Source of the DNA: an uncultured Methylomirabilota bacterium
Lineage (GTDB): Bacteria > Methylomirabilota > Methylomirabilia > CAVQYV01
NCBI GenBank assembly: GCA_963718295.1
Contig: CAVQYV010000005.1
Location: 25,933 to 89,932, forward strand
Reading direction: 5' to 3'
Length of the DNA: 64,000 nucleotides
Positions 15,824 to 28,164 of the stretch are shown here, one piece after another. A model generated the notes under the pieces. That model saw only the letters and a list, made by a program, of their open reading frames with translations, had not been told where the DNA came from and searched no databases. How positions within the stretch are numbered: position 1 is the stretch's first letter; the number at the start of each line of letters is the position of its first letter. The translations under genes were made by a program, and so were the position numbers.

Positions 15824-15844
15824 GGGTACACAAAAAAGACCCTG

Positions 15845-15998
15845 AACTCCGACCCGGCAACTCCTACAGCACTTGGTGCCATGGAGGCTGGGCGGTAGGG
15901 CTCATCTGGAAACGGGTGCGCCTCCCGTGCTTGGAAAGGAGTTCGAGTAGCAGCCGTGATCGGCCGGCGTGAGACTCATCTCCGTCGGCCTTCTTTTT
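15845..15998 (+). ncRNA. Candidate structured RNA, copy 1 (riboswitch-like leader or sRNA). A ~100-nt conserved domain is followed by an intrinsic terminator (8-bp G/C stem plus TTCTTTTT).
   Basis: ~90% identical to 17836-17940. The predicted helices (aactcct/aggagtt, agcac/gtgct, ggaggc/gcctcc) are preserved in copy 2 with G-U compensating changes. The terminator stem ggccggcg...cgtcggcc also co-varies between the copies. Confidence 0.45.
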
Positions 15999-17821: not shown

Positions 17822-17835
17822 TGGACAAATATCGA

Positions 17836-17988
17836 AACTCCGACCCGGCAATTCCTAAAGCACCCGGTGCCATGGATGCCGGGCGGTAGGGCTCATCTGG
17901 AAACGGATGCGCCTCCCGTGCTTGGAAAGGAGTTCGAGTGGCAGCTCAGATTGGCCGACGTGGGGCTCAACTCCGTTGGCCTTTTTTG
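17836..17988 (+). ncRNA. Candidate structured RNA, copy 2 (paralog of 15845-15998), with its own intrinsic terminator (ggccgacg...cgttggcc plus TTTTTT).
   Basis: See copy 1. It is followed by ~240 nt of divergent leader and then the porin gene. Confidence 0.45.
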
Positions 17989-18226: not shown

Positions 18227-19783
18227 ATGAAAGGCATCCGAGGCACCCTCATCGCAATCATTGCCTTGGCCCTTCTCTTCTTCCTCCCCGGCTCGGGATT
18301 CGCGGCGGAAAAGTCTCTGGCCGACATCCTCAAGGAAAAGGGGATCCTCACCGAGGAAGAATACCAACAAGTCAAGGAGTTGGAGGAATCCCAGAAGGCG
18401 GGAGAGGCCAAAAAGGCAGAAGAGGCGACCAAGCAGGCAGAGGAAGCAACCAAGCAGGCAGAAGAGGCGACCAAGCAGGCCGAAGAGGCAACCAAGAAGG
18501 CAGAAGAGCTGGCCAAGAAGGCGGCGGCCGAGAAACCCGCCCCCGTGGTTGCCGGCTACAAGAAAGGGTTCTTCATTCAGACCCCGGATGAGAAGTACAA
18601 GCTGGTCTTCAACGGATACGTCCGGGGCATGCTTGAGCTTTACGAGAACAACACCTCCCAGGACAACCAATTCGATATCAACCGGGCCCGCCTGAACCTC
18701 AAAGGATATTATGGGAAGTACTGGATGGGGGAGGTATCGGCAGAGCTCACCACCGCCAGCGATAGCAGATTCCTCAAGTACGCCTATATCAATAACAGCT
18801 ATCTCCCCTACTTGCAGGCTCGGGTCGGACAGTTCAAGGCCCCCTTCAGCCGGGAATATCTGATCACCCTGGCCGATGTGGAGACCATCATGCGGGCCAT
18901 GATCACCGATGCCGGCGGAACCTTACCCAAGTATGACATCGGTGCCATGCTGTGGAGCCCTAACGTCTTCAACGGGCTGCTCTGGTATGGAGCGGGAATC
19001 TTCAATGGCAACGGGGCCAATAATTTCGATTCCAACGATGACATGGATTTCATTGGCCGCCTGGTCGTGGCCCCCTTTGCCCCCACCCAGATCTCCGCTT
19101 TGAAGGGCCTGGAATTCGGGGGTTCCGTGCAAACTGGAAGGCAGACCCCTAACCAGAGCTATTCGCCCAGGCTCCCCACCAATTGGTCCCTATTCGGGAA
19201 CAACAAAACCAGCTTCAGTTACCGCGGACAGCGGGACCGCTACGCCCTGGAGGCATCCTACAAGTGGGGTCCCCTCACCCTGCGGGGGGAATGGATCTAC
19301 CAGCGCCTGGAGCGGGAGAATCAGGTCAGGGTCGATCCGACTACCAATGCCATCAGCTCCTCGGGAGAGCTGATGGATGCCCCGGATCTGATCTCCTGGG
19401 GCTGGTACGTCCTGGGCAGCTATTTTGTCTGGGGGAATCAGGATAAAGGCATCCAACTGGTAGCCCGCTACGAGCAGTTCGATGTGGATGATGATCCAGC
19501 CGCCGAGAAGTACCGTAAGGCCAATCCCATGGCGGAGAACTCGGTCACCAACCCCTGGGGCAATGACCTCAACATCAGGGGAAATACGGCGGATGTCCTG
19601 ACTCTGGGCATCAACTATTTCCCCTATCCCAATGTCCGATTGGCCTTCAACTGGTTCTATCAGACCCTCGACAACACGTACACCACCGATAAGATCAAGC
19701 ACAACAACGATGGAGGTGAGTTCTTCACCGGTGGAGGGGGAGCCATGAATTCCTTCTGGCTCATGGCCCAGGTGAAGTGGTAA
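18227..19783 (+). CDS. Phosphate/anion-selective porin of the OprO/OprP family, with an N-terminal coiled-coil heptad-repeat region.
   Basis: GGAG RBS. Signal peptide MKGIRGTLIAIIALALLFFLPGSGFA. Four copies of (AEEATKQ). A long beta-barrel region with a C-terminal aromatic residue (…AQVKW). Confidence 0.7.
   Translation: MKGIRGTLIAIIALALLFFLPGSGFAAEKSLADILKEKGILTEEEYQQVKELEESQKAGEAKKAEEATKQAEEATKQAEEATKQAEEATKKAEELAKKAAAEKPAPVVAGYKKGFFIQTPDEKYKLVFNGYVRGMLELYENNTSQDNQFDINRARLNLKGYYGKYWMGEVSAELTTASDSRFLKYAYINNSYLPYLQARVGQFKAPFSREYLITLADVETIMRAMITDAGGTLPKYDIGAMLWSPNVFNGLLWYGAGIFNGNGANNFDSNDDMDFIGRLVVAPFAPTQISALKGLEFGGSVQTGRQTPNQSYSPRLPTNWSLFGNNKTSFSYRGQRDRYALEASYKWGPLTLRGEWIYQRLERENQVRVDPTTNAISSSGELMDAPDLISWGWYVLGSYFVWGNQDKGIQLVARYEQFDVDDDPAAEKYRKANPMAENSVTNPWGNDLNIRGNTADVLTLGINYFPYPNVRLAFNWFYQTLDNTYTTDKIKHNNDGGEFFTGGGGAMNSFWLMAQVKW
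18416..18520 (+). repeat. Tandem 21-nt repeat (about 5 units, gcagaagaggcgaccaagcag) encoding EEATKQA heptads inside the porin gene.
   Basis: Read from the sequence. Confidence 0.75.
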
Positions 19784-19845
19784 GGGGAAGGATTGCCACG
19801 AATTGAGGCTGCACAGTCCCATCTGAATTCATGGAGAGAGAGGGT

Positions 19846-20720
19846 ATGCTTCGAGACACCGGGAATATCTTGAAAGTGGGGTATCTGCTGTTGCCCATAT
19901 GCTTCTGGCTGGTCCTGCCTGCCTTGGTGCAGGCCCAGGGCCAATATGACGGGGCCTACGGGAGTGGCGCGAATCCTTTCATCCTGGCCACCGGCAGCCC
20001 GGGGGAATTGGGACTGCTGAAGGCGCTGGGAGAGGCCTACGCCACGAAGGAGAATGCTACGCTCCTCTGGAAGAAGGCGGGCTCGGGGGAAGCCCTGAAA
20101 CTGCTGAAAGAAAAAAGGTGGACGCCATCATGGTCCACGATCCTGATGGGGAGAAGAAGGCCATTGCGGAGGGATGGGCGGTGGGGCGCACCCTGATCGG
20201 ATCCAACGAGTTCTTCATCGTGGGTCCGGTCGGCGACCCTGCTGGCATCAGCCAGGCCAAGTCTGCCGCACAGGTCTACCAGCGAATTGCAGCAAGTCGT
20301 TCCAAATTCTTCTCCCGAGGGGATCATTCGGGAACCCACAAGAAGGAATTGGCGATCTGGAAGAAGGCGGGGATCGAACCCCAAGGTGAGTGGTACCTAA
20401 TTGCGGGCGGATTTATGAGGGCAACCCTGAAACGAGCCAATGATGAACAAGGATATTTCATGACCGATAGCAGCACCTGGATCATGGAAAAGGGCAATTT
20501 GCCCGGCCTGAAGGTCCTGTTCAGGGGAGACAAGTTCTTGGTGAACACCTATCACGCCCTCTGCCAGCCGCCAAAGGCGACTCCGGGCGCTCCATGGGCT
20601 GCTGAATTCATTGAGTTCGTGGCCTCAGCGGATGGGCAGGAGATCATCCGCACTTACGGGAAGGAGGACTTCAAAGAGGCACTTTACAACGACGCCGTCT
20701 ATGCCAAGCAATACGAATGA
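19846..20720 (+). pseudogene. tupA: Tungstate ABC transporter substrate-binding protein TupA (copy 1). A frameshift sits in an A6 run near 20112-20117.
   Basis: Two ORFs, 19831-20196 and 20118-20720, together align over the full length with the downstream tupA paralog (LLKALGEAY...GSGEALKL / VDAIMVHDPD...). Signal peptide present. Confidence 0.65.
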
Positions 20721-20739
20721 TGAGATGAAGGAGATCAAG

Positions 20740-21588
20740 ATGAGAACTCACCAATGGAGATTTATTCTCCTCGCGGTTCTTTCGTTGTTGCTGGTCTTCT
20801 CTCTTCCGGCCTTTGCCCAGGAGAGATTAAAGCTCGCGACCACGACCAGCACGGAAAATACCGGGTTACTAAAGGCCCTGCTTCCCCCATTTGAAGAGAA
20901 GAATCATTGTAAGGTGGATGTAATCGCCGTGGGATCTGGGCAATCCATCAAGCTGGGCGAACAGGGAGACGTGGATGTCGTCCTGGCTCATGCCCCGGAT
21001 CTGGAAGAGAAATTCATGAAGGACGGCTTCGGGGTGAATCGCCGCTATGTCATGTATAATGACTTCATCATTGTCGGTCCCCCGGAGGATCCGGCGCAGA
21101 TCAAAGGCCTGAAAGAGGCCAAGGTGGCCTTCAAGAGGATCGCCGACACCCAGTCTTCCTTCATCTCCCGGGGAGACAAATCGGGGACCCATGTCAAGGA
21201 GCTCGCGATTTGGAAGGCCGCAGGGATCAAGGTGGAAGGCATGAAGGGGAAATGGTATCTGGAGGCGGGCAAGGGAATGGGAGAGGTCTTGAATATGGCC
21301 CATGAGAAAAAGGCCTATACCCTTGCCGATCGAGGGACCTACCTCGCCTATCAGGATAAGACCAGCTCGGTCATCCTATGTGAGGGAGACCCGATGCTCT
21401 TCAATCCCTATCACATCATGGCGGTGAACCCGGCCAAGTTCCCCCATGTGAAATTTGAATTGGCCACCAAGCTGGTCGAATGGGTCACCTCCCCCGCGGG
21501 ACAGAAGATCATTCGAGAGTTCAAGGACAAGAAGGGAAATCCTCTATTCGTCCCCACCGCCGAGGTTAAAGGGACAGGCACCCATTGA
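20740..21588 (+). CDS. tupA: Tungstate ABC transporter substrate-binding protein TupA (copy 2, intact).
   Basis: AGGAG RBS 6 nt upstream. Signal peptide. TupA-like motifs TTTSTENTGLL, IAVGSGQSIKLGEQGDVDVVLAH, YNDFIIVGP. Confidence 0.8.
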   Translation: MRTHQWRFILLAVLSLLLVFSLPAFAQERLKLATTTSTENTGLLKALLPPFEEKNHCKVDVIAVGSGQSIKLGEQGDVDVVLAHAPDLEEKFMKDGFGVNRRYVMYNDFIIVGPPEDPAQIKGLKEAKVAFKRIADTQSSFISRGDKSGTHVKELAIWKAAGIKVEGMKGKWYLEAGKGMGEVLNMAHEKKAYTLADRGTYLAYQDKTSSVILCEGDPMLFNPYHIMAVNPAKFPHVKFELATKLVEWVTSPAGQKIIREFKDKKGNPLFVPTAEVKGTGTH

Positions 21589-22043
21589 TCGCATAGTGCC
21601 CCCCAATCCCCTGGCTGGTGGGCGAGGTCAAGGGGCGCGGCACAAGTAGACCCTCTATCGCCTCGGGAGAAGCCCCGTCCCGGGGCAGGGGGCTTAATTG
21701 TCAAGGTAGTTCAGCCCTGCCCTTCACCTCCGAGGGCGGGCCGCCTTTCCGCCTGTACTCTATTCTGCCTTGAAGGATCACCCCGAGTATCGGCTGGTAT
21801 TCGGGGTGATCCCCTATCCTCCCGACACCTCTATTAATAGGATCTTTATGTTCATTATGTTTATGTCCATTCTCTATGCTCTCTCATTCACCTCGTCAGA
21901 GCCCAAGCAGTTGCCCGCCCCACGAAAAGGACTTCCTTGGGAAGAGATTATGATGTAATATGCAAGGAAGAGTATATCCGCTGCTTAGTGCCATATCTCA
22001 AATGGCGTAACATCCATTTCTGCCTCCCGCGGAGAATCAGAGC

Positions 22044-22772
22044 ATGCAATTCTACATCGGCTTTGATGACACAGATACCGTCGATTCCGACCGTGGTACG
22101 GGAAAATTGGCTCGCTGGTTTGAGGGCCAACTGCCTCAGGCCTGCCGCATGTGGGGTGTCGTTCGCCAACAACTCTTGATGGATGATTCCATTCCCTACA
22201 CCTCTCACAATAGCTCGGCCTGTGTCGTCGTGGAAGCCCCCAACATGGACATCATGAATGAGTTGCTTGCCAGGGCGATCGATCATATTGAGCGGCATTC
22301 CTTGCCGGGGAGCGATCCGGGGTTGTGCTTGAGCCATGAAGGCCATCCCTCATTGTCTGAATTGATCCACTTTGGACGAGCGTGCGCCACCAGGGTGGTT
22401 ACCCAAAAAGATGCCCTTCGAGCCGCTAACGGGGTTCATCTCTCGGGCCATGGGGGTACCAATGACGGCATCATAGGGGCTGCTGCGGCCGTCGGTCTAA
22501 CGGCCTACGGATGGGGTGGCAGATTCATTGAGTTCGGAAAATTGCGGGGTTTTCCTGAGCAGGTCTATGTATCAGATCTGGAAGGGGCGGGGATCGCGGT
22601 GGTCTCCATGGATCGGGACGCCCGAGTTCCGGGTCCGGAGGATGTGGTCAAGACCAATGGCTGGCTGCGCCCCCGGCTTTGGGGAGGGAGCCCGGGATTG
22701 CCGGTGACATCCAGAGGTGAAAACCTTTGGGAGACCTTGGGAGAGAAGAAAAGGAAGGAAAAGGAAACATAG
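22044..22772 (+). CDS. Conserved hypothetical protein, 242 aa (N-terminal IGFDDTD motif and a Gly-rich GHGGTNDGIIGAAAAVG segment). Family not recognized.
   Basis: Long ORF in operon position between tupA and the MoSto-like gene. No identifiable domain from the sequence alone. Confidence 0.5.
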   Translation: MQFYIGFDDTDTVDSDRGTGKLARWFEGQLPQACRMWGVVRQQLLMDDSIPYTSHNSSACVVVEAPNMDIMNELLARAIDHIERHSLPGSDPGLCLSHEGHPSLSELIHFGRACATRVVTQKDALRAANGVHLSGHGGTNDGIIGAAAAVGLTAYGWGGRFIEFGKLRGFPEQVYVSDLEGAGIAVVSMDRDARVPGPEDVVKTNGWLRPRLWGGSPGLPVTSRGENLWETLGEKKRKEKET

Positions 22773-22783
22773 GAGGAATTGAA

Positions 22784-23011
22784 ATGGCTGGGAAGATCTT
22801 TTATCGAGAGAGAGGAAAGGTGGGCGAGGGGGAGAAGAAGCCGCGGTTCAAGTTAGTGGCCGTGGCAGATGTCAATCTAAAGGTCTATGGAAAGCACCTT
22901 CGCAGAAGCGAGCTCGAGCAGATCGCAAAGGGTGTCGGCGCTGATTTGATACTGCTCTCTGGCGGCGAAGGGAAATACGAAAAAGAGGAAGAGGTGGAGG
23001 TCGCGGACTGA
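22784..23011 (+). CDS. Small hypothetical protein, 75 aa.
   Basis: Strong AGGAGG RBS 4 nt upstream of the ATG. Sequence MAGKIFYRERGKVGEGEKKPRFKLVAVADVNLKVYGKHL. Family not recognized. Confidence 0.4.
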   Translation: MAGKIFYRERGKVGEGEKKPRFKLVAVADVNLKVYGKHLRRSELEQIAKGVGADLILLSGGEGKYEKEEEVEVAD

Positions 23012-23080
23012 GGTCAAGCAGCCTCTTGCGGCTGTTGGCCCTTCCTTACAACCCGTGAGATCCGAATAGGAGTCCATTCG

Positions 23081-23911
23081 ATGGCTTTAGTGCGCGAACG
23101 CGACGGGCGCCGCCTGCATGTCAAAAGCAAGTTGATGGGAGAGAGTCTGGTCAGCAAATCATTCGTTGAGGGGTTAGAAATAGCCCCTCAACAGCGTCTT
23201 TTCCCGGATGTGAATATCCTCAAGGTAGGAGGGCAATCCATTTGTGACCGCGGGGTGAAGGCGGTCCCCGATGTGATTCAAGAGATCGTTGCCAATAAAG
23301 GGGAGCACAAGATGCTGGTGACCACCGGGGGTGGGACGCGGAGCCGCCACATCTATTCCATCGGGCTGGAGCTGGGCATGCCCACCGGGATCATTGCCAA
23401 ATTTGGAAGTTCGGTCTCGGAACAGAACGCCCTCCTCATCAGCACGCTCCTCTCCCCCTGGGGAGGAATCAAGATCGGCCACGACGAGATCGTCAAGCTC
23501 CCCACTTACTTTGCCCAGGGCTGTATTCCGGTCACCCACGGCATGCCTCCCTACGACTTTTTTGCCATTCCGCCCGAAAAGGGACGGATCCCCGTCCATC
23601 GAACCGATGTGGGCACATTGCTCTTGGCCGATCTGATCGGTGCCAGAAGCTGCATCTTCATAAAGGACGAGAAGGGACTTTACACGGACGATCCCAAAAA
23701 GAACCCCAAAGTGGAATTCATCGCTGAGATTGGGGCCAAGGAGCTTCTGCGCAGAGGTCTGGACGATCTGATCATCGAACGGCCCTGCCTGGAGATCCTT
23801 CAGAATAGCCAGGTAATCACCCGGATTTACATCATCAACGGTCTCGAGAAAGGGAATATCACCCGAGCCCTCCAGGGCGAAAATGTAGGGACCATCATTT
23901 ACAAAGAATAG
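23081..23911 (+). CDS. Amino-acid-kinase-family protein resembling the molybdenum/tungsten storage protein subunits MosA/MosB (UMP-kinase fold).
   Basis: Motifs LKVGGQSICDRG, VTTGGGTRSRHIYSIG, GSSVSEQNA, and C-terminal NGLEKGNITRALQGENVGTII. It is ~276 aa, the same size as MoSto subunits. AGGAG RBS. It is embedded between tupA and tupBC. Confidence 0.65.
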   Translation: MALVRERDGRRLHVKSKLMGESLVSKSFVEGLEIAPQQRLFPDVNILKVGGQSICDRGVKAVPDVIQEIVANKGEHKMLVTTGGGTRSRHIYSIGLELGMPTGIIAKFGSSVSEQNALLISTLLSPWGGIKIGHDEIVKLPTYFAQGCIPVTHGMPPYDFFAIPPEKGRIPVHRTDVGTLLLADLIGARSCIFIKDEKGLYTDDPKKNPKVEFIAEIGAKELLRRGLDDLIIERPCLEILQNSQVITRIYIINGLEKGNITRALQGENVGTIIYKE

Positions 23912-24092
23912 TGGGCGACCCGAACCATTTCCTCTAAAGGCCTTGGGTCCATGAGGAATGGTCGATAGGGTATTGTGGGAAACGACAATGCCTCCCGTGT
24001 TTGGAAAGGGTGAAGACGTGCTGAGTAGAATGCCAGTGCCTGATCCAACGAGGCCACTGGCATTTGTTTCTTGCCCCAACTGAGGAATACAG

Positions 24093-24782
24093 GTGGACTT
24101 CATCATAGAGGCTATCGTTACGTCGTTTCGACTCATCATCACCTTGAATCCTGAGGTGTTTGAGGTGGTCTACTTTACTCTCAAAGTATCCTTCTGGGGG
24201 ACCCTGCTCTCGACGCTCTTCGGGGTTCCCATCGGGTTCCTCATAGGGATCAGGGAATTCCCGGGGAAAGGGATGGTGCGCACCATCCTCAACACCCTCA
24301 TGGCGCTTCCCACTGTGGTGGTAGGCCTCACGGTATATGCTTTCATCTCCCGACAGGGGCCGTTGGGACAATGGGGGCTTCTCTTCAGCCCCAAGGCGGT
24401 CATCATTGGCCAGTGGGTGTTGGCTGCTCCATTGATTACCGCCCTGACTCTATCCGCCACCCAGTCCGTTGATCCGCGGGTTGCCCTTTCAGCCCAGACC
24501 CTGGGGGCCAGCCGCAGTCAAGAGGCAATCGCGGTCCTCAAAGAAGCCAAGTTTGCCCTTATGGCTGCCATAACGGCGGGATTCGGCCGAGTCATTGCGG
24601 AAGTGGGGGCTGCGATGATGTTGGGCGGCAACATCCGCGGTTATACCCGAACCATGACCACGGCCATCGCCCTGGAATCCAGCAAGGGGGAATTTGGCTT
24701 TGGTTTGGCCTTGGGCCTTATCCTGATGGCTCTGGCCTTAGCCATCAACTTCTTCTTCACCTATCTTCAGGGGAGGAAGTGA
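24093..24782 (+). CDS. tupB: Tungstate ABC transporter permease TupB.
   Basis: GTG start with a GAGGAA RBS. Multiple TM helices and the ABC permease EAA-like region (AIALESSKGEFGFGLALG). Confidence 0.8.
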   Translation: MDFIIEAIVTSFRLIITLNPEVFEVVYFTLKVSFWGTLLSTLFGVPIGFLIGIREFPGKGMVRTILNTLMALPTVVVGLTVYAFISRQGPLGQWGLLFSPKAVIIGQWVLAAPLITALTLSATQSVDPRVALSAQTLGASRSQEAIAVLKEAKFALMAAITAGFGRVIAEVGAAMMLGGNIRGYTRTMTTAIALESSKGEFGFGLALGLILMALALAINFFFTYLQGRK

Positions 24783-25799
24783 ATGGTCTCGAATTCTTCC
24801 GGCGGTTTTGAACTTGAAGTCCACCAAATCAAGCACCTCTATAATGATAGAGCCGCACTGGATATCGCTGAGCTTTCCTTCCAGAAGGGAAAGATCTATG
24901 GTTTAGCGGGATCCAATGGGGCAGGCAAGAGCACCCTGATGCTCATTCTCAGCCTCCTTCTCAAGCCAAGCTCGGGCCGTGTCCTTTTCCGGGGGGTGGA
25001 GGTCACCGATGGAAATCGGAGGGATCTGAGGGGGCGGATCAGTATGCTTCTCCAGGATCCCCTCCTCTTCCGCAATACGGTCGCCAGGAACGTGGAGTAC
25101 GGCCTGAGGATTCGGCATATCGCGAGAACGGAGAGGAAGAAAAGGGTCATGAAGAGTTTGGAAATGTTGGGGTTGGAAGATTTCGCCGACCGAAAGGCGA
25201 GGGAGCTCTCTGGAGGGGAGGCCCAGAGGGTCGCCATCGCCCGCGCCCTGGCGATCCAACCGGAAATCCTTCTTCTCGACGAGCTTACCGCCAATGTGGA
25301 TGAGGGCAATGTCAAGATTGTGGAGGAGATCGTCCGATCCTTGAGTAGGGAATCGGGCGCCACCGTGATCTTTTCGACCCATGACAAAGATCAGGCCCAC
25401 CGACTGGCCGATGAGACGATCATCCTCTTGGAAGGAAGGATCACTCCCTTTTCCCCGGAGAACATCTTCAAAGGGAAGACTATCCGGGATGGAGAAGGGA
25501 CCTGGTTCGACACGGGCAGGATCAGGGTCTTCCTGCCCAATGGAGAAGAGGCCAGGGCCATCTCTATAAGCCCCGAGGAAATCGTGGTTTCTCTGTCCCC
25601 GTTCAACTCCAGTGCCCAAAACCGGGTGGAAGGCACAATTGAGAGTATGGTCGTCGACGGGGACGGCGTGAGGCTCTTGATAAATGCCCCGGAGCAGTTC
25701 CACGTGCTCATCACCAAGAAATCCTTGTGCGAGTTGAACCTCAATGTGGGGATGCGGGTTTATCTCACCTTCAAGAGCACCGCAGTAAAGGTATTCTGA
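24783..25799 (+). CDS. tupC: Tungstate ABC transporter ATP-binding protein TupC with a C-terminal TOBE/Mop molybdate-binding domain.
   Basis: Walker A GSNGAGKST. Signature LSGGEAQRV. Walker B LLLDE. The C-terminal ~110 aa have a TOBE-like fold (RVEGTIESMVVDGDGVRLLI...). The start overlaps the tupB stop. Confidence 0.85.
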   Translation: MVSNSSGGFELEVHQIKHLYNDRAALDIAELSFQKGKIYGLAGSNGAGKSTLMLILSLLLKPSSGRVLFRGVEVTDGNRRDLRGRISMLLQDPLLFRNTVARNVEYGLRIRHIARTERKKRVMKSLEMLGLEDFADRKARELSGGEAQRVAIARALAIQPEILLLDELTANVDEGNVKIVEEIVRSLSRESGATVIFSTHDKDQAHRLADETIILLEGRITPFSPENIFKGKTIRDGEGTWFDTGRIRVFLPNGEEARAISISPEEIVVSLSPFNSSAQNRVEGTIESMVVDGDGVRLLINAPEQFHVLITKKSLCELNLNVGMRVYLTFKSTAVKVF

Positions 25800-26873: not shown

Positions 26874-28164
26874 ATGGCTATCGTCCGCCCCTTTAGGGGC
26901 CTTCGCTTTAACCCAAAGAAGATTGCCGATCTCGCCTCGGTCATGTCTTTGCCCTATGACGTCCTGACCGATAGAGATCGGGAGGAGCTCTATCAGGCCC
27001 ACCCCTGCAATATCATCCGCATCATCTGGGGAAAGGATCTCCCGGGAGATGGACCCCAGGAGAACAAGTATCTCCGGGCGGGCCGCCTCCTCAAGGAATG
27101 GGAGGCAGAAGAGATCCTGATCCAGGAGGTGCGCGAATCCTTCTATCTCTACGCCCAGGACTTCCCGATGGAAAAAGAGATGAAATCGCGCCAAGGGATC
27201 ATCGCCCGGGTCAAACTGGGAAACAGAGACTCGGATGCCATTCTGGGGCACGAGAATACCTTTCTGGAACAACGGACCGACCGCCTCGATCTGATCCGTG
27301 CTACCGCGGCGAATCTCGACCCCATTTTCGCCCTGTATGAGGGGAAAGGCACCAGCCTGGAGGCGGGCATGAAGGAAGAAACAGGGCGATCTCCGCTCCT
27401 CGATATTCGAGATCGATGGGGCGTGCGGCAGCGCCTCTGGGCCATCCAGGACACGGACCAACACCGCCTCATCATGCAGGAGATGGCACAACGGCGATTA
27501 TTCATTGCAGACGGGCATCACCGCTTTGACGCGGCCCTCCAATATCGCCGGGAGAGGATGGCGGGAGACAAGGGAGGGCCCAAGATAGACCCCGGATATC
27601 ACTATACCCTGATGACCCTGGTCGCCATGGAGGATCCTGGTCTGATCGTCCTGCCCTACCACCGACTCCTCCGTGAAGTCCGGGGCTGGGATCTCCAGAA
27701 ATTCCTGCCCCAGGCGCGAGGCGTTTTTTCCGTAGACGGAAGTGGCACTTCCCTCCCAAGGAGAGGAAAGGGAAGCCTTTGTGCGCCAGCAACTGGAAAA
27801 GGAGGATCATCCGGCGCATCGTTTCGCCCTGTATGCGGGTGGAGATTCTCTATTTCTCCTCACCCGGACCCGCTCGGAAGCCTCTCCCCAGTTGGACGTG
27901 GCCATTTTGGAAGAGGTGATCCTGCAAGGACTCTTAGGGCTTCAGGGTCCCGATAAAGAAGGGAAAATCAATTACACTCACGATATGAAGGAGGCGTTGG
28001 GCCAGGTGGAGGGAGGAGCCGCTGATCTGGCCTTTCTTCTCCGGCCCACCTCGCTGGAGGAGATCCAGTACGTCTCCTTGGCGGGAGAGAAAATGCCCCA
28101 GAAATCGACCTACTTTTATCCCAAGCTCCTCTCCGGGCTGGTGATCAACCCCTTGGATCCCTGA
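26874..28164 (+). pseudogene. DUF1015-family protein, frameshifted near 27730-27770 (T6 and C-run region).
   Basis: The N-terminal ORF 26874-27956 contains the DUF1015 hallmark IADGHHRFDAA. The ORF 27742-28164 supplies the conserved C-terminus KSTYFYPKLLSGLV in another frame. Confidence 0.6.

Follow-up and report, generated by a model that had tools for sequence, protein, structure and literature searches.

A Porin_O_P-family porin gene behind a Moco-family riboswitch and beside tup genes in an uncultured Methylomirabilota bacterium

Introduction

To our knowledge, the passage of tungstate and molybdate across the outer membrane has so far only been presumed to take place through porins. Here we describe a locus in the DNA of an uncultured Methylomirabilota bacterium (NCBI GenBank assembly GCA_963718295.1, contig CAVQYV010000005.1, positions 25,933 to 89,932 of the forward strand, a stretch of 64,000 nucleotides that we call the window) in which the gene for a putative OprP-like porin stands behind a riboswitch of the molybdenum cofactor (Moco) family and in front of two genes for TupA-type tungstate-binding proteins, with the genes for the permease TupB and the ATPase TupC further downstream behind a riboswitch of their own. 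A specific porin whose gene is linked to those of a tungstate importer, through its position and through an RNA that senses a cofactor, would be a testable candidate for the outer-membrane step, and it is this tie, how far it holds in related loci and how far it extends to the porin itself, that we consider below.

The locus

The gene order between 15.8 and 25.8 kb was read from Pfam, NCBIfam and Rfam scans. Every real gene in this interval is on the + strand, the open reading frames (ORFs) of the minus strand being shadows, and the features are as follows.

15835-15957, + strand: riboswitch 1, RF01055, no P3 stem, 68.4 bits
16212-17609, + strand: GEGP-motif dihaem protein, NF041762 at 376.7 bits against a cut-off of 300, with CarboxypepD_reg PF13620
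17792-17821, + strand: sigma-70-like promoter candidate, TTGACA-18 nt-TATAAG, a consensus match only
17826-17948, + strand: riboswitch 2, RF01055, no P3 stem, 76 bits, E=1.3e-16
17953-17987, + strand: terminator-like hairpin at 17953-17981, folding at -37.1 kcal/mol (z=-5.75), and a U6 run, also matched in the terminator scan
18227-19783, + strand: porin, PF07396 at 70.2 bits, signal peptide, ribosome-binding site AAGGAG before the ATG
18414-18522, + strand: 21-bp tandem repeat, 5.2 copies, TRF score 148
19831-20720, + strand: tupA1, frameshifted, PBP_like_2 at 117 bits once repaired, PDB 3lr1 at E=1e-44
20740-21588, + strand: tupA2, PDB 3lr1 at E=4e-95, start codon and ribosome-binding site present
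21589-22043: gap of 455 bp
22044-22772, + strand: orf242, no Pfam match, TiaS kinase-domain fold in its model
22784-23011, + strand: orf75, 79% identical to its counterpart in locus L126
23081-23911, + strand: homologue of the beta subunit of the molybdenum storage protein (MoSto), amino-acid-kinase family, PDB 2ogx_B at E=4.4e-66, PF00696
23906-24026, + strand: riboswitch 3, RF01055, no P3 stem, 63.6 bits
24093-24782, + strand: tupB, NF041773 at 217.9 bits, NF038017 at 239 bits
24783-25799, + strand: tupC, PF00005 and PF03459 (TOBE)

An earlier reading of this DNA, made from the sequence only, had placed the porin directly upstream of a complete TupABC transporter. This has to be amended, as the end of tupA2 (21588) and the start of tupB (24093) are separated by the 455-bp gap, three genes (22044-23911) and riboswitch 3 with its terminator. 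The same reading had supposed that an RNA-regulated cassette lies upstream, and here the scan agrees with it, the three RF01055 matches (76, 68 and 64 bits in rounded numbers for riboswitches 2, 1 and 3) all lying above the gathering score of 36. In all three alignments the part of the model that makes up the P3 stem (positions of about 61-77 for riboswitch 2) is deleted, and the copies in the window and in the related loci are 117-123 nt long, against a model of 135 positions. P3-less RNAs of this family are known to track tungsten-cofactor metabolism (Regulski 2008, PMC2408646).

Folding places a GC-rich hairpin followed by a U-run on the 3' side of each of the three aptamers. That of riboswitch 1 is at 15962-15990, upstream of the gene for the dihaem protein; that of riboswitch 2 is the presumed expression platform in front of the porin; and that of riboswitch 3, whose start overlaps the end of the MoSto-like gene, lies around 24028-24065 and has a U-rich tail (z=-2.82). 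Because promoter and terminator consensus scans were overall not above shuffled background, our terminator calls rest on these individual folds and not on the scans. The three riboswitches thus head separate units, namely the dihaem protein gene, porin-tupA1-tupA2 and tupBC, and within the two multigene units we would expect co-transcription.

Linkage of riboswitch, porin and tupA in related loci

A synteny comparison, which the sequence-only reading had proposed, was made over 27 loci on related metagenome contigs, each with a member of the porin's tight family. In 12 of these loci (L002, L049, L050, L052, L053, L062-L065, L068, L070 and L071), as well as in the window, Rfam places an RF01055 riboswitch 147-313 nt 5' of the start of the porin, the related copies being P3-less and scoring 63-74 bits, and in all 13 loci the porin is the first gene behind the riboswitch. 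A tupA gene detected by tblastn lies directly 3' of the porin in 10 loci (L002, L049, L050, L052, L053, L055, L056, L062, L063 and L069). Wherever both flanks can be read the riboswitch and tupA occur together, with the single exception of L065, where the porin is the sole gene behind the riboswitch. A compact form is that of L049, in which riboswitch, porin, tupA2, tupB and tupC follow one another and the genes are 9, 17 and 0 nt apart. The contiguous porin-Tup unit that had been proposed for the window therefore exists in L049, but in the window it is split into separate riboswitch-headed units.

An alignment of the riboswitches resolves two sequence types with compensatory helix changes between them. 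Riboswitches 1 and 2, which are about 88% identical with the terminator included, are of the type found in L068 and L070, and riboswitch 3 is of the type that heads the compact operons (L049:9728-9849, L050:893-1014, L052:833-954). Because the window combines both types, it is suggested that its locus is a split, rearranged or mosaic version of the compact porin-tupA2-tupB-tupC operon. In L049, L050 and L053 the interval from DegP to the porin riboswitch lacks the cassette of riboswitch 1 and the dihaem protein gene.

The contrary case that had been named beforehand was a porin lineage consistently found with pst (phosphate) genes and lacking co-regulation with tup. What we find is that no riboswitch-linked porin adjoins pst, and an Rfam scan found no riboswitch in the pst-linked porin loci. 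Within the searchable literature we came across no account that pairs a porin with tup, tungstate, molybdate or the Moco riboswitch, in keeping with the earlier statement that the pairing had not been described.

The porin

The porin matches PF07396 (Porin_O_P) over residues 137-486 (70.2 bits against a cut-off of 20.9, E=2.6e-19), carries a signal peptide at its N-terminus and has tryptophan as its C-terminal residue. Its AlphaFold (AF2) model is of low confidence (predicted local distance difference test or pLDDT of 59.5, predicted template modelling score of 0.55), and with that limit its top Foldseek matches are OprP (PDB 2o4v, E=1.4e-16, TM 0.61 on the target) and OprO (PDB 4rjw). The assignment to the OprO/OprP family that had been made from the sequence is upheld by the family match, and identity to OprP is about 15%. 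We abandoned the attempt to place the arginine ladder and lysine cluster through an OprP/OprO alignment, as there was no sequence-level match and the loops were modelled with low confidence.

An N-terminal (AEEATKQ) coiled-coil had been singled out in the sequence-only reading as unusual. The repeat is real, in that the 21-bp unit in its 5.2 copies encodes (AEEATKQ)n heptads, and the AF2 model shows this region as one long helix (residues ~43-99). It is not unusual, however, as among 21 relatives of the porin the linker ranges from no heptad to several while the motif that precedes it, EKSLADILKEKGILTEEEYQ, is kept, and we therefore regard it as the length-variable part of a family-wide N-terminal extension. 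Pfam gave only sub-threshold matches for the linker, to Alanine_zipper (Lpp-type; E=0.0037) and SHOCT_2, and the helix may form a periplasmic coiled-coil stalk.

An identical porin is present in sequencing run ERR11561443. The tight family shares 56-69% identity and is almost exclusively metagenomic; a scan of a genome collection gave a single close relative, L002.

The TupA pair and TupBC

The two tupA genes are adjacent, as had been reported, but they do not represent a recent tandem duplication, since their products are 35% identical and fall into two orthologous groups, each of which is conserved in other loci. The residues of the published tungstate site of TupA are TTTS, His59, Arg118, Thr124 and Asp170 (PMC5517513). 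By alignment TupA2 holds all of them (TTTS, His, the Arg of SRGD, Thr and Asp), and its best solved relative is the tungstate-binding protein of Geobacter sulfurreducens (PDB 3lr1, E=4e-95). In TupA1 and all its orthologues ATGSP (TGSP) replaces TTTS, and the His, Arg, Thr and Asp are kept. The ATGSP motif defines a small separate TupA-like subfamily that is found in several 50%-identity clusters and that takes in P0299, P0301, P0305, P0306 and P0309 beside TupA1. This subfamily is further marked by an N-terminal (A/V)YGxG motif, and in its other lobe the Arg, Thr and Asp are retained. In loci of Thermodesulfobacteriota type it is a STIG variant, instead of ATGSP, that is paired with a TTTS copy.

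These sites bear on the alternative that the unit serves molybdate, or both metals indiscriminately, with the P3-less riboswitch sensing Moco or a common precursor. For TupA proteins nM affinity for molybdate is documented as well (PMC5517513), MoSto can store either metal (PMC6448029), the ligand of the P3-less RNAs was inferred and has never been directly demonstrated (PMC2408646), and the altered anion-site motif of TupA1 could bind a second oxyanion. Nonetheless, we consider a molybdate or indiscriminate unit quite improbable, given that TupA2 has the full TTTS/R118 tungstate signature with a tungstate-binding protein as its best match, and that 17 of 19 organisms showed an association of P3-less RNAs with tungsten-cofactor genes (PMC2408646).

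The sequence-only reading had noted a frameshift in an A-run of one tupA copy, and this is what the comparison finds: tupA1 has A6 at 20110-20115 where the orthologues of L002 and L063 have A7, and the addition of one A restores the conserved LKLLKEKKVDAIMVHDP. The shift could be a genuine inactivation or a phase-variable switch, in which case the organism would use TupA2 only. An A6/A7 run is slippery, and there is an apparent second frameshift in a DUF1015 gene (26874-28164), which at about 27736-27760 breaks into ORFs 26874-27956 and 27742-28164; its shift point is outside the nearby T6 run and not in a long homopolymer, so the assembly may carry real pseudogenes. We find a genuine loss of tupA1 somewhat unlikely all the same, as its frame is otherwise fully conserved, the orthologues are intact and 72-77% identical, and homopolymer miscalls are common in assemblies.

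TupB is a single ATP-binding cassette (ABC) permease (BPD_transp_1) that is 80% identical to TupB of L049. TupC carries the C-terminal TOBE domain that had been read from its sequence (PF03459, 28.9 bits against a cut-off of 22.3). Measured against the NCBIfam equivalogs, TupA2 scores 247 against a cut-off of 400, TupB 217.9 against 320 (NF041773) and TupC 159 against 400, and the top model for TupC is WtpC (218 against 440).

The three genes between tupA2 and tupB

The product of orf242 has no Pfam match and more than 3000 homologues. Its AF2 model (pLDDT 77.7) matches PDB 4rvz, 3amt and 5xob in Foldseek at E~1e-7 and 25% identity, and on this model its N-terminal ~160 residues appear to fold like the TiaS ATP-dependent kinase domain. 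The product of orf75 is a conserved protein of 75 amino acids whose gene always lies between orf242 and the MoSto-like gene. The third product aligns with MosB over 258 residues (2ogx_B, E=4.4e-66) and with MosA (2ogx_A, E=8e-42), and it is encoded by a single AA_kinase gene in the window and in L125-L127, with no paired alpha and beta genes. Between the window and L126 the three proteins are 70%, 79% and 86% identical (in the order orf242, orf75 and MoSto-like), and the same gene order is found in L125:290-2122, L126:7001-8830, L127:3212-5041 and L132:3306-5174 (-). The trio recurs beside tungstate-uptake genes in other lineages. Upstream of orf242 the window has no conservation with L125-L127 and no Rfam match that would indicate a leader or regulatory RNA.

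MoSto stores molybdenum or tungsten as polyoxometalate clusters at the expense of ATP, and in 2019 it was described as without known homologues in the databases (PMC6448029). It is a speculative idea that the trio forms a module for the storage or processing of tungsten or molybdenum. This widespread set of TiaS-like, 75-amino-acid and MoSto-beta-like proteins may represent a tungsten storage or processing system that has gone unrecognised.

A parallel in the Porin_5 family

On contigs of Thermodesulfobacteriota type the trio is accompanied by a regulator composed of HTH_17 and PBP_like domains (TunR-like), two tupA genes (TTTS and STIG), tupB and tupC with its TOBE domain, and this tup set is without a riboswitch. 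In L125, L131 and L132 a gene of the Porin_5 family (PF16930) stands beside the set and is divergently transcribed; the Porin_5 genes are at L125:3073-4524 (-), L131:6001-7419, L132:6001-7359 and L134:6001-7416. A homologue with 52% identity heads a pstSCAB-phoU operon, and one other homologue is unlinked. The Porin_5 protein and the porin of the window have an N-terminal LxxLxxKGILT motif in common. Two unrelated barrel families therefore show the same dual deployment with Tup and with Pst, which strengthens the view that these bacteria pair their oxyanion importers with a porin of their own.

At the edge of L131, downstream of its tupC-like gene, there is an nhaA-I RNA (RF03057, 50 bits, L131:283-344 (-)) that is probably unrelated.

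Discussion

As a genomic association the porin-Tup arrangement is well supported. We see a functional tie in it because, among the related loci, 12 have the riboswitch in front of the porin and 10 have tupA after it, because L049 has the compact operon and L065 has the porin alone behind the riboswitch, and because a second porin family shows the parallel just described. There are, however, several findings that weigh against this interpretation and that have to be considered together.

The first concerns the porin's closest relatives. Porins of the same family, 61-77% identical, head pstSCAB-phoU operons: in L057 the order is histidine kinase, porin, pstS, pstC, pstA, and in L128, L129 and L130 it is porin-pstSCAB(-phoU), with PhoBR-type genes nearby and no riboswitch. 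These four loci hold the only pst-linked members of the tight family. A bootstrapped neighbour-joining tree of the barrel (100 replicates) recovered neither the tungsten-linked nor the pst-linked porins as monophyletic (0/100 in both cases), so that we rejected a tungsten-specific porin clade, and it placed the tungsten-linked porin of L049 and the pst-linked porin of L057 as sisters in 97/100 replicates; these two come from one metagenome of origin and are 77% identical. Just two alignment columns fully separate the two groups, at residues 128 (F/N against L in pst-linked porins) and 215 (hydrophobic against Ser) of the window porin, or nt ~18608 and ~18869, and residue 215 is within a segment modelled with low confidence (residues 204-236). 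The channel may thus be a general oxyanion or phosphate pore, because close paralogues serve pst, there is no tungsten clade and only those two columns discriminate. Furthermore, neither phmmer nor a profile of 21 porin sequences gave a PDB match to OprP or OprO, and the pore residues are not readable from a model with a pLDDT of 59.5. On the side of the importer, TupA2, TupB and TupC are all under their NCBIfam equivalog cut-offs, tupA1 is frameshifted in this assembly, and sequence by itself does not separate tungsten from molybdenum.

Much of this would also fit an ordinary phosphate or general-anion porin that happens to be parked beside tup, with the riboswitch there mainly for the downstream tupA genes. 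Apart from the pst-heading family members and their interleaving in the tree with almost no discriminating residues, such an explanation can draw on the next-nearest relatives, the more distant Porin_O_P members being mostly beside two-permease ABC systems, and on other riboswitch-less paralogues of the tight family, which precede NosL, formate dehydrogenase or FeS/NrfD genes. It does not readily account for a porin gene that in 13 loci invariably comes first after the riboswitch and in L065 is the sole one there, nor for a linkage that turns up again in several sub-lineages and also in a second family of porins, and shut-off by a molybdenum or tungsten cofactor would not be expected for a phosphate porin. 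We therefore judge an ordinary, merely neighbouring porin to be improbable. What clearly follows, because near-identical family members head pst operons and the two groups interleave, is that the specialisation of the porin is regulatory. The proposal in the sequence-only reading of a dedicated outer-membrane channel for Tup accordingly survives as a regulatory and positional link (12 and 10 loci, respectively), and dedication to tungsten holds for regulation only; the pore itself, with paralogues at the head of pst operons and no clade of its own, may or may not discriminate tungstate from phosphate.

On balance, we consider it fairly probable that the locus is an island for the acquisition and storage of tungsten, and possibly also of molybdenum, that is made up of several units, at least three of which are shut down through P3-less riboswitches once the metal-pterin cofactor is plentiful, and that its porin is to Tup what OprP is to Pst. 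Under this mechanism, scarcity of the cofactor would lead to read-through of the terminator of riboswitch 2 and hence to synthesis of an OprP-like, presumably trimeric anion porin together with two periplasmic TupA-type proteins, and read-through at riboswitch 3 would supply the TupB permease and the TupC ATPase. The porin would raise the permeability of the outer membrane to small tetrahedral oxyanions at trace concentrations, much as OprP does on behalf of Pst. Periplasmic tungstate would be captured by TupA2, which would provide the selectivity, and by TupA1, to which we do not assign a ligand, after which TupBC would import the anion. The MoSto-like, TiaS-like and 75-amino-acid proteins would then probably store or process the metal.

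We also put forward a wider hypothesis, tentatively and in the awareness that it could well prove wrong. It is that diderm anaerobes possess dedicated outer-membrane tungstate channels that were repeatedly recruited from porins for phosphate, and this in two or more unrelated families. With the version described here, which would be switched directly by a tungsten-cofactor riboswitch, a diffusion porin under riboswitch control would be known for the first time, and so would an outer-membrane step for tungsten or molybdenum. It would be set within a complete island that reaches from the outer membrane to storage, and a single-subunit MoSto-like storage system that has so far escaped notice, together with a TiaS-like partner that uses ATP, would be part of that island.

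The locus offers concrete proteins for work on oxyanion selectivity, and nearly identical porin paralogues that have come to lie in either a phosphate or a tungsten regulon are a natural experiment on the evolution of porin specificity, or on its failure to evolve. The set of genes known behind P3-less Moco-family riboswitches is also extended, and now includes a porin. The theme itself is already familiar from OprP with Pst and from the cobalamin riboswitch with btuB, and by analogy the window would hold a riboswitch-controlled porin-Tup version of it.

Comparison with known systems

The closest known counterpart is OprP/OprO with the Pst system in the Pho regulon of Pseudomonas aeruginosa. 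The porin of the window shares with it the family PF07396, OprP and OprO being the best fold matches of its low-confidence model. In that system an anion porin is induced along with an ABC importer and its high-affinity periplasmic binding protein upon scarcity of the oxyanion, and we propose the like for the window, where it would be a product made from the oxyanion that is scarce; paralogues of the window porin even head pstSCAB-phoU. It differs in having only ~15% identity and no sequence-level match even by profile, in being under a cofactor riboswitch and not PhoBR, in its partnership with TupA and TupBC, and in a predicted long N-terminal periplasmic helix that is not covered by the solved chains of OprP and OprO.

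The importer resembles the TupABC systems of Eubacterium acidaminophilum, Campylobacter jejuni, Desulfovibrio alaskensis and Geobacter sulfurreducens (3lr1) in the TTTS, His, Arg118, Thr124 and Asp170 of TupA2, in its single permease gene and in its TOBE-bearing ATPase. Unlike those systems, it has sub-cut-off NCBIfam scores with an ATPase nearer to WtpC, an additional binding protein that belongs to the ATGSP subfamily, and genes that are split over two riboswitch-headed units with the porin first.

Two kinds of cofactor riboswitch invite comparison. An adenosylcobalamin riboswitch controls btuB, so that an RNA that senses the cofactor turns off an outer-membrane component of the uptake route for its supply. 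BtuB transports the cofactor itself, actively and in dependence on TonB, whereas the protein in the window would be a diffusion porin for an inorganic precursor. The RNAs of the window agree with the P3-less class of Moco/tungsten cofactor (Tuco) RF01055 RNAs in their strong P3-less covariance matches and their terminator-type platforms, and there are several copies in one tungsten-related locus, as in the triple arrangement in an operon of Syntrophomonas wolfei; the three copies in the window, however, head separate units and are not in tandem, and among the genes they control is that of an outer-membrane porin, a class of gene absent from the paper in which the P3-less class was described, where the terms 'porin' and 'outer membrane' occur 0 times (Regulski 2008, PMC2408646).

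The product of 23081-23911 aligns with both MosA and MosB of Azotobacter vinelandii. The window nevertheless has one gene and not an alpha/beta pair, and that gene is always accompanied by those of the TiaS-like and 75-amino-acid proteins and is part of a tungstate-uptake locus in a lineage of anaerobe type. Finally, the tup clusters with Porin_5 differ from the window in their barrel family, in divergent transcription and in having a protein regulator (HTH_17 and PBP_like) in place of a riboswitch, but they have in common with it a porin beside the same tungsten gene set, the LxxLxxKGILT motif and a pst-linked paralogue.

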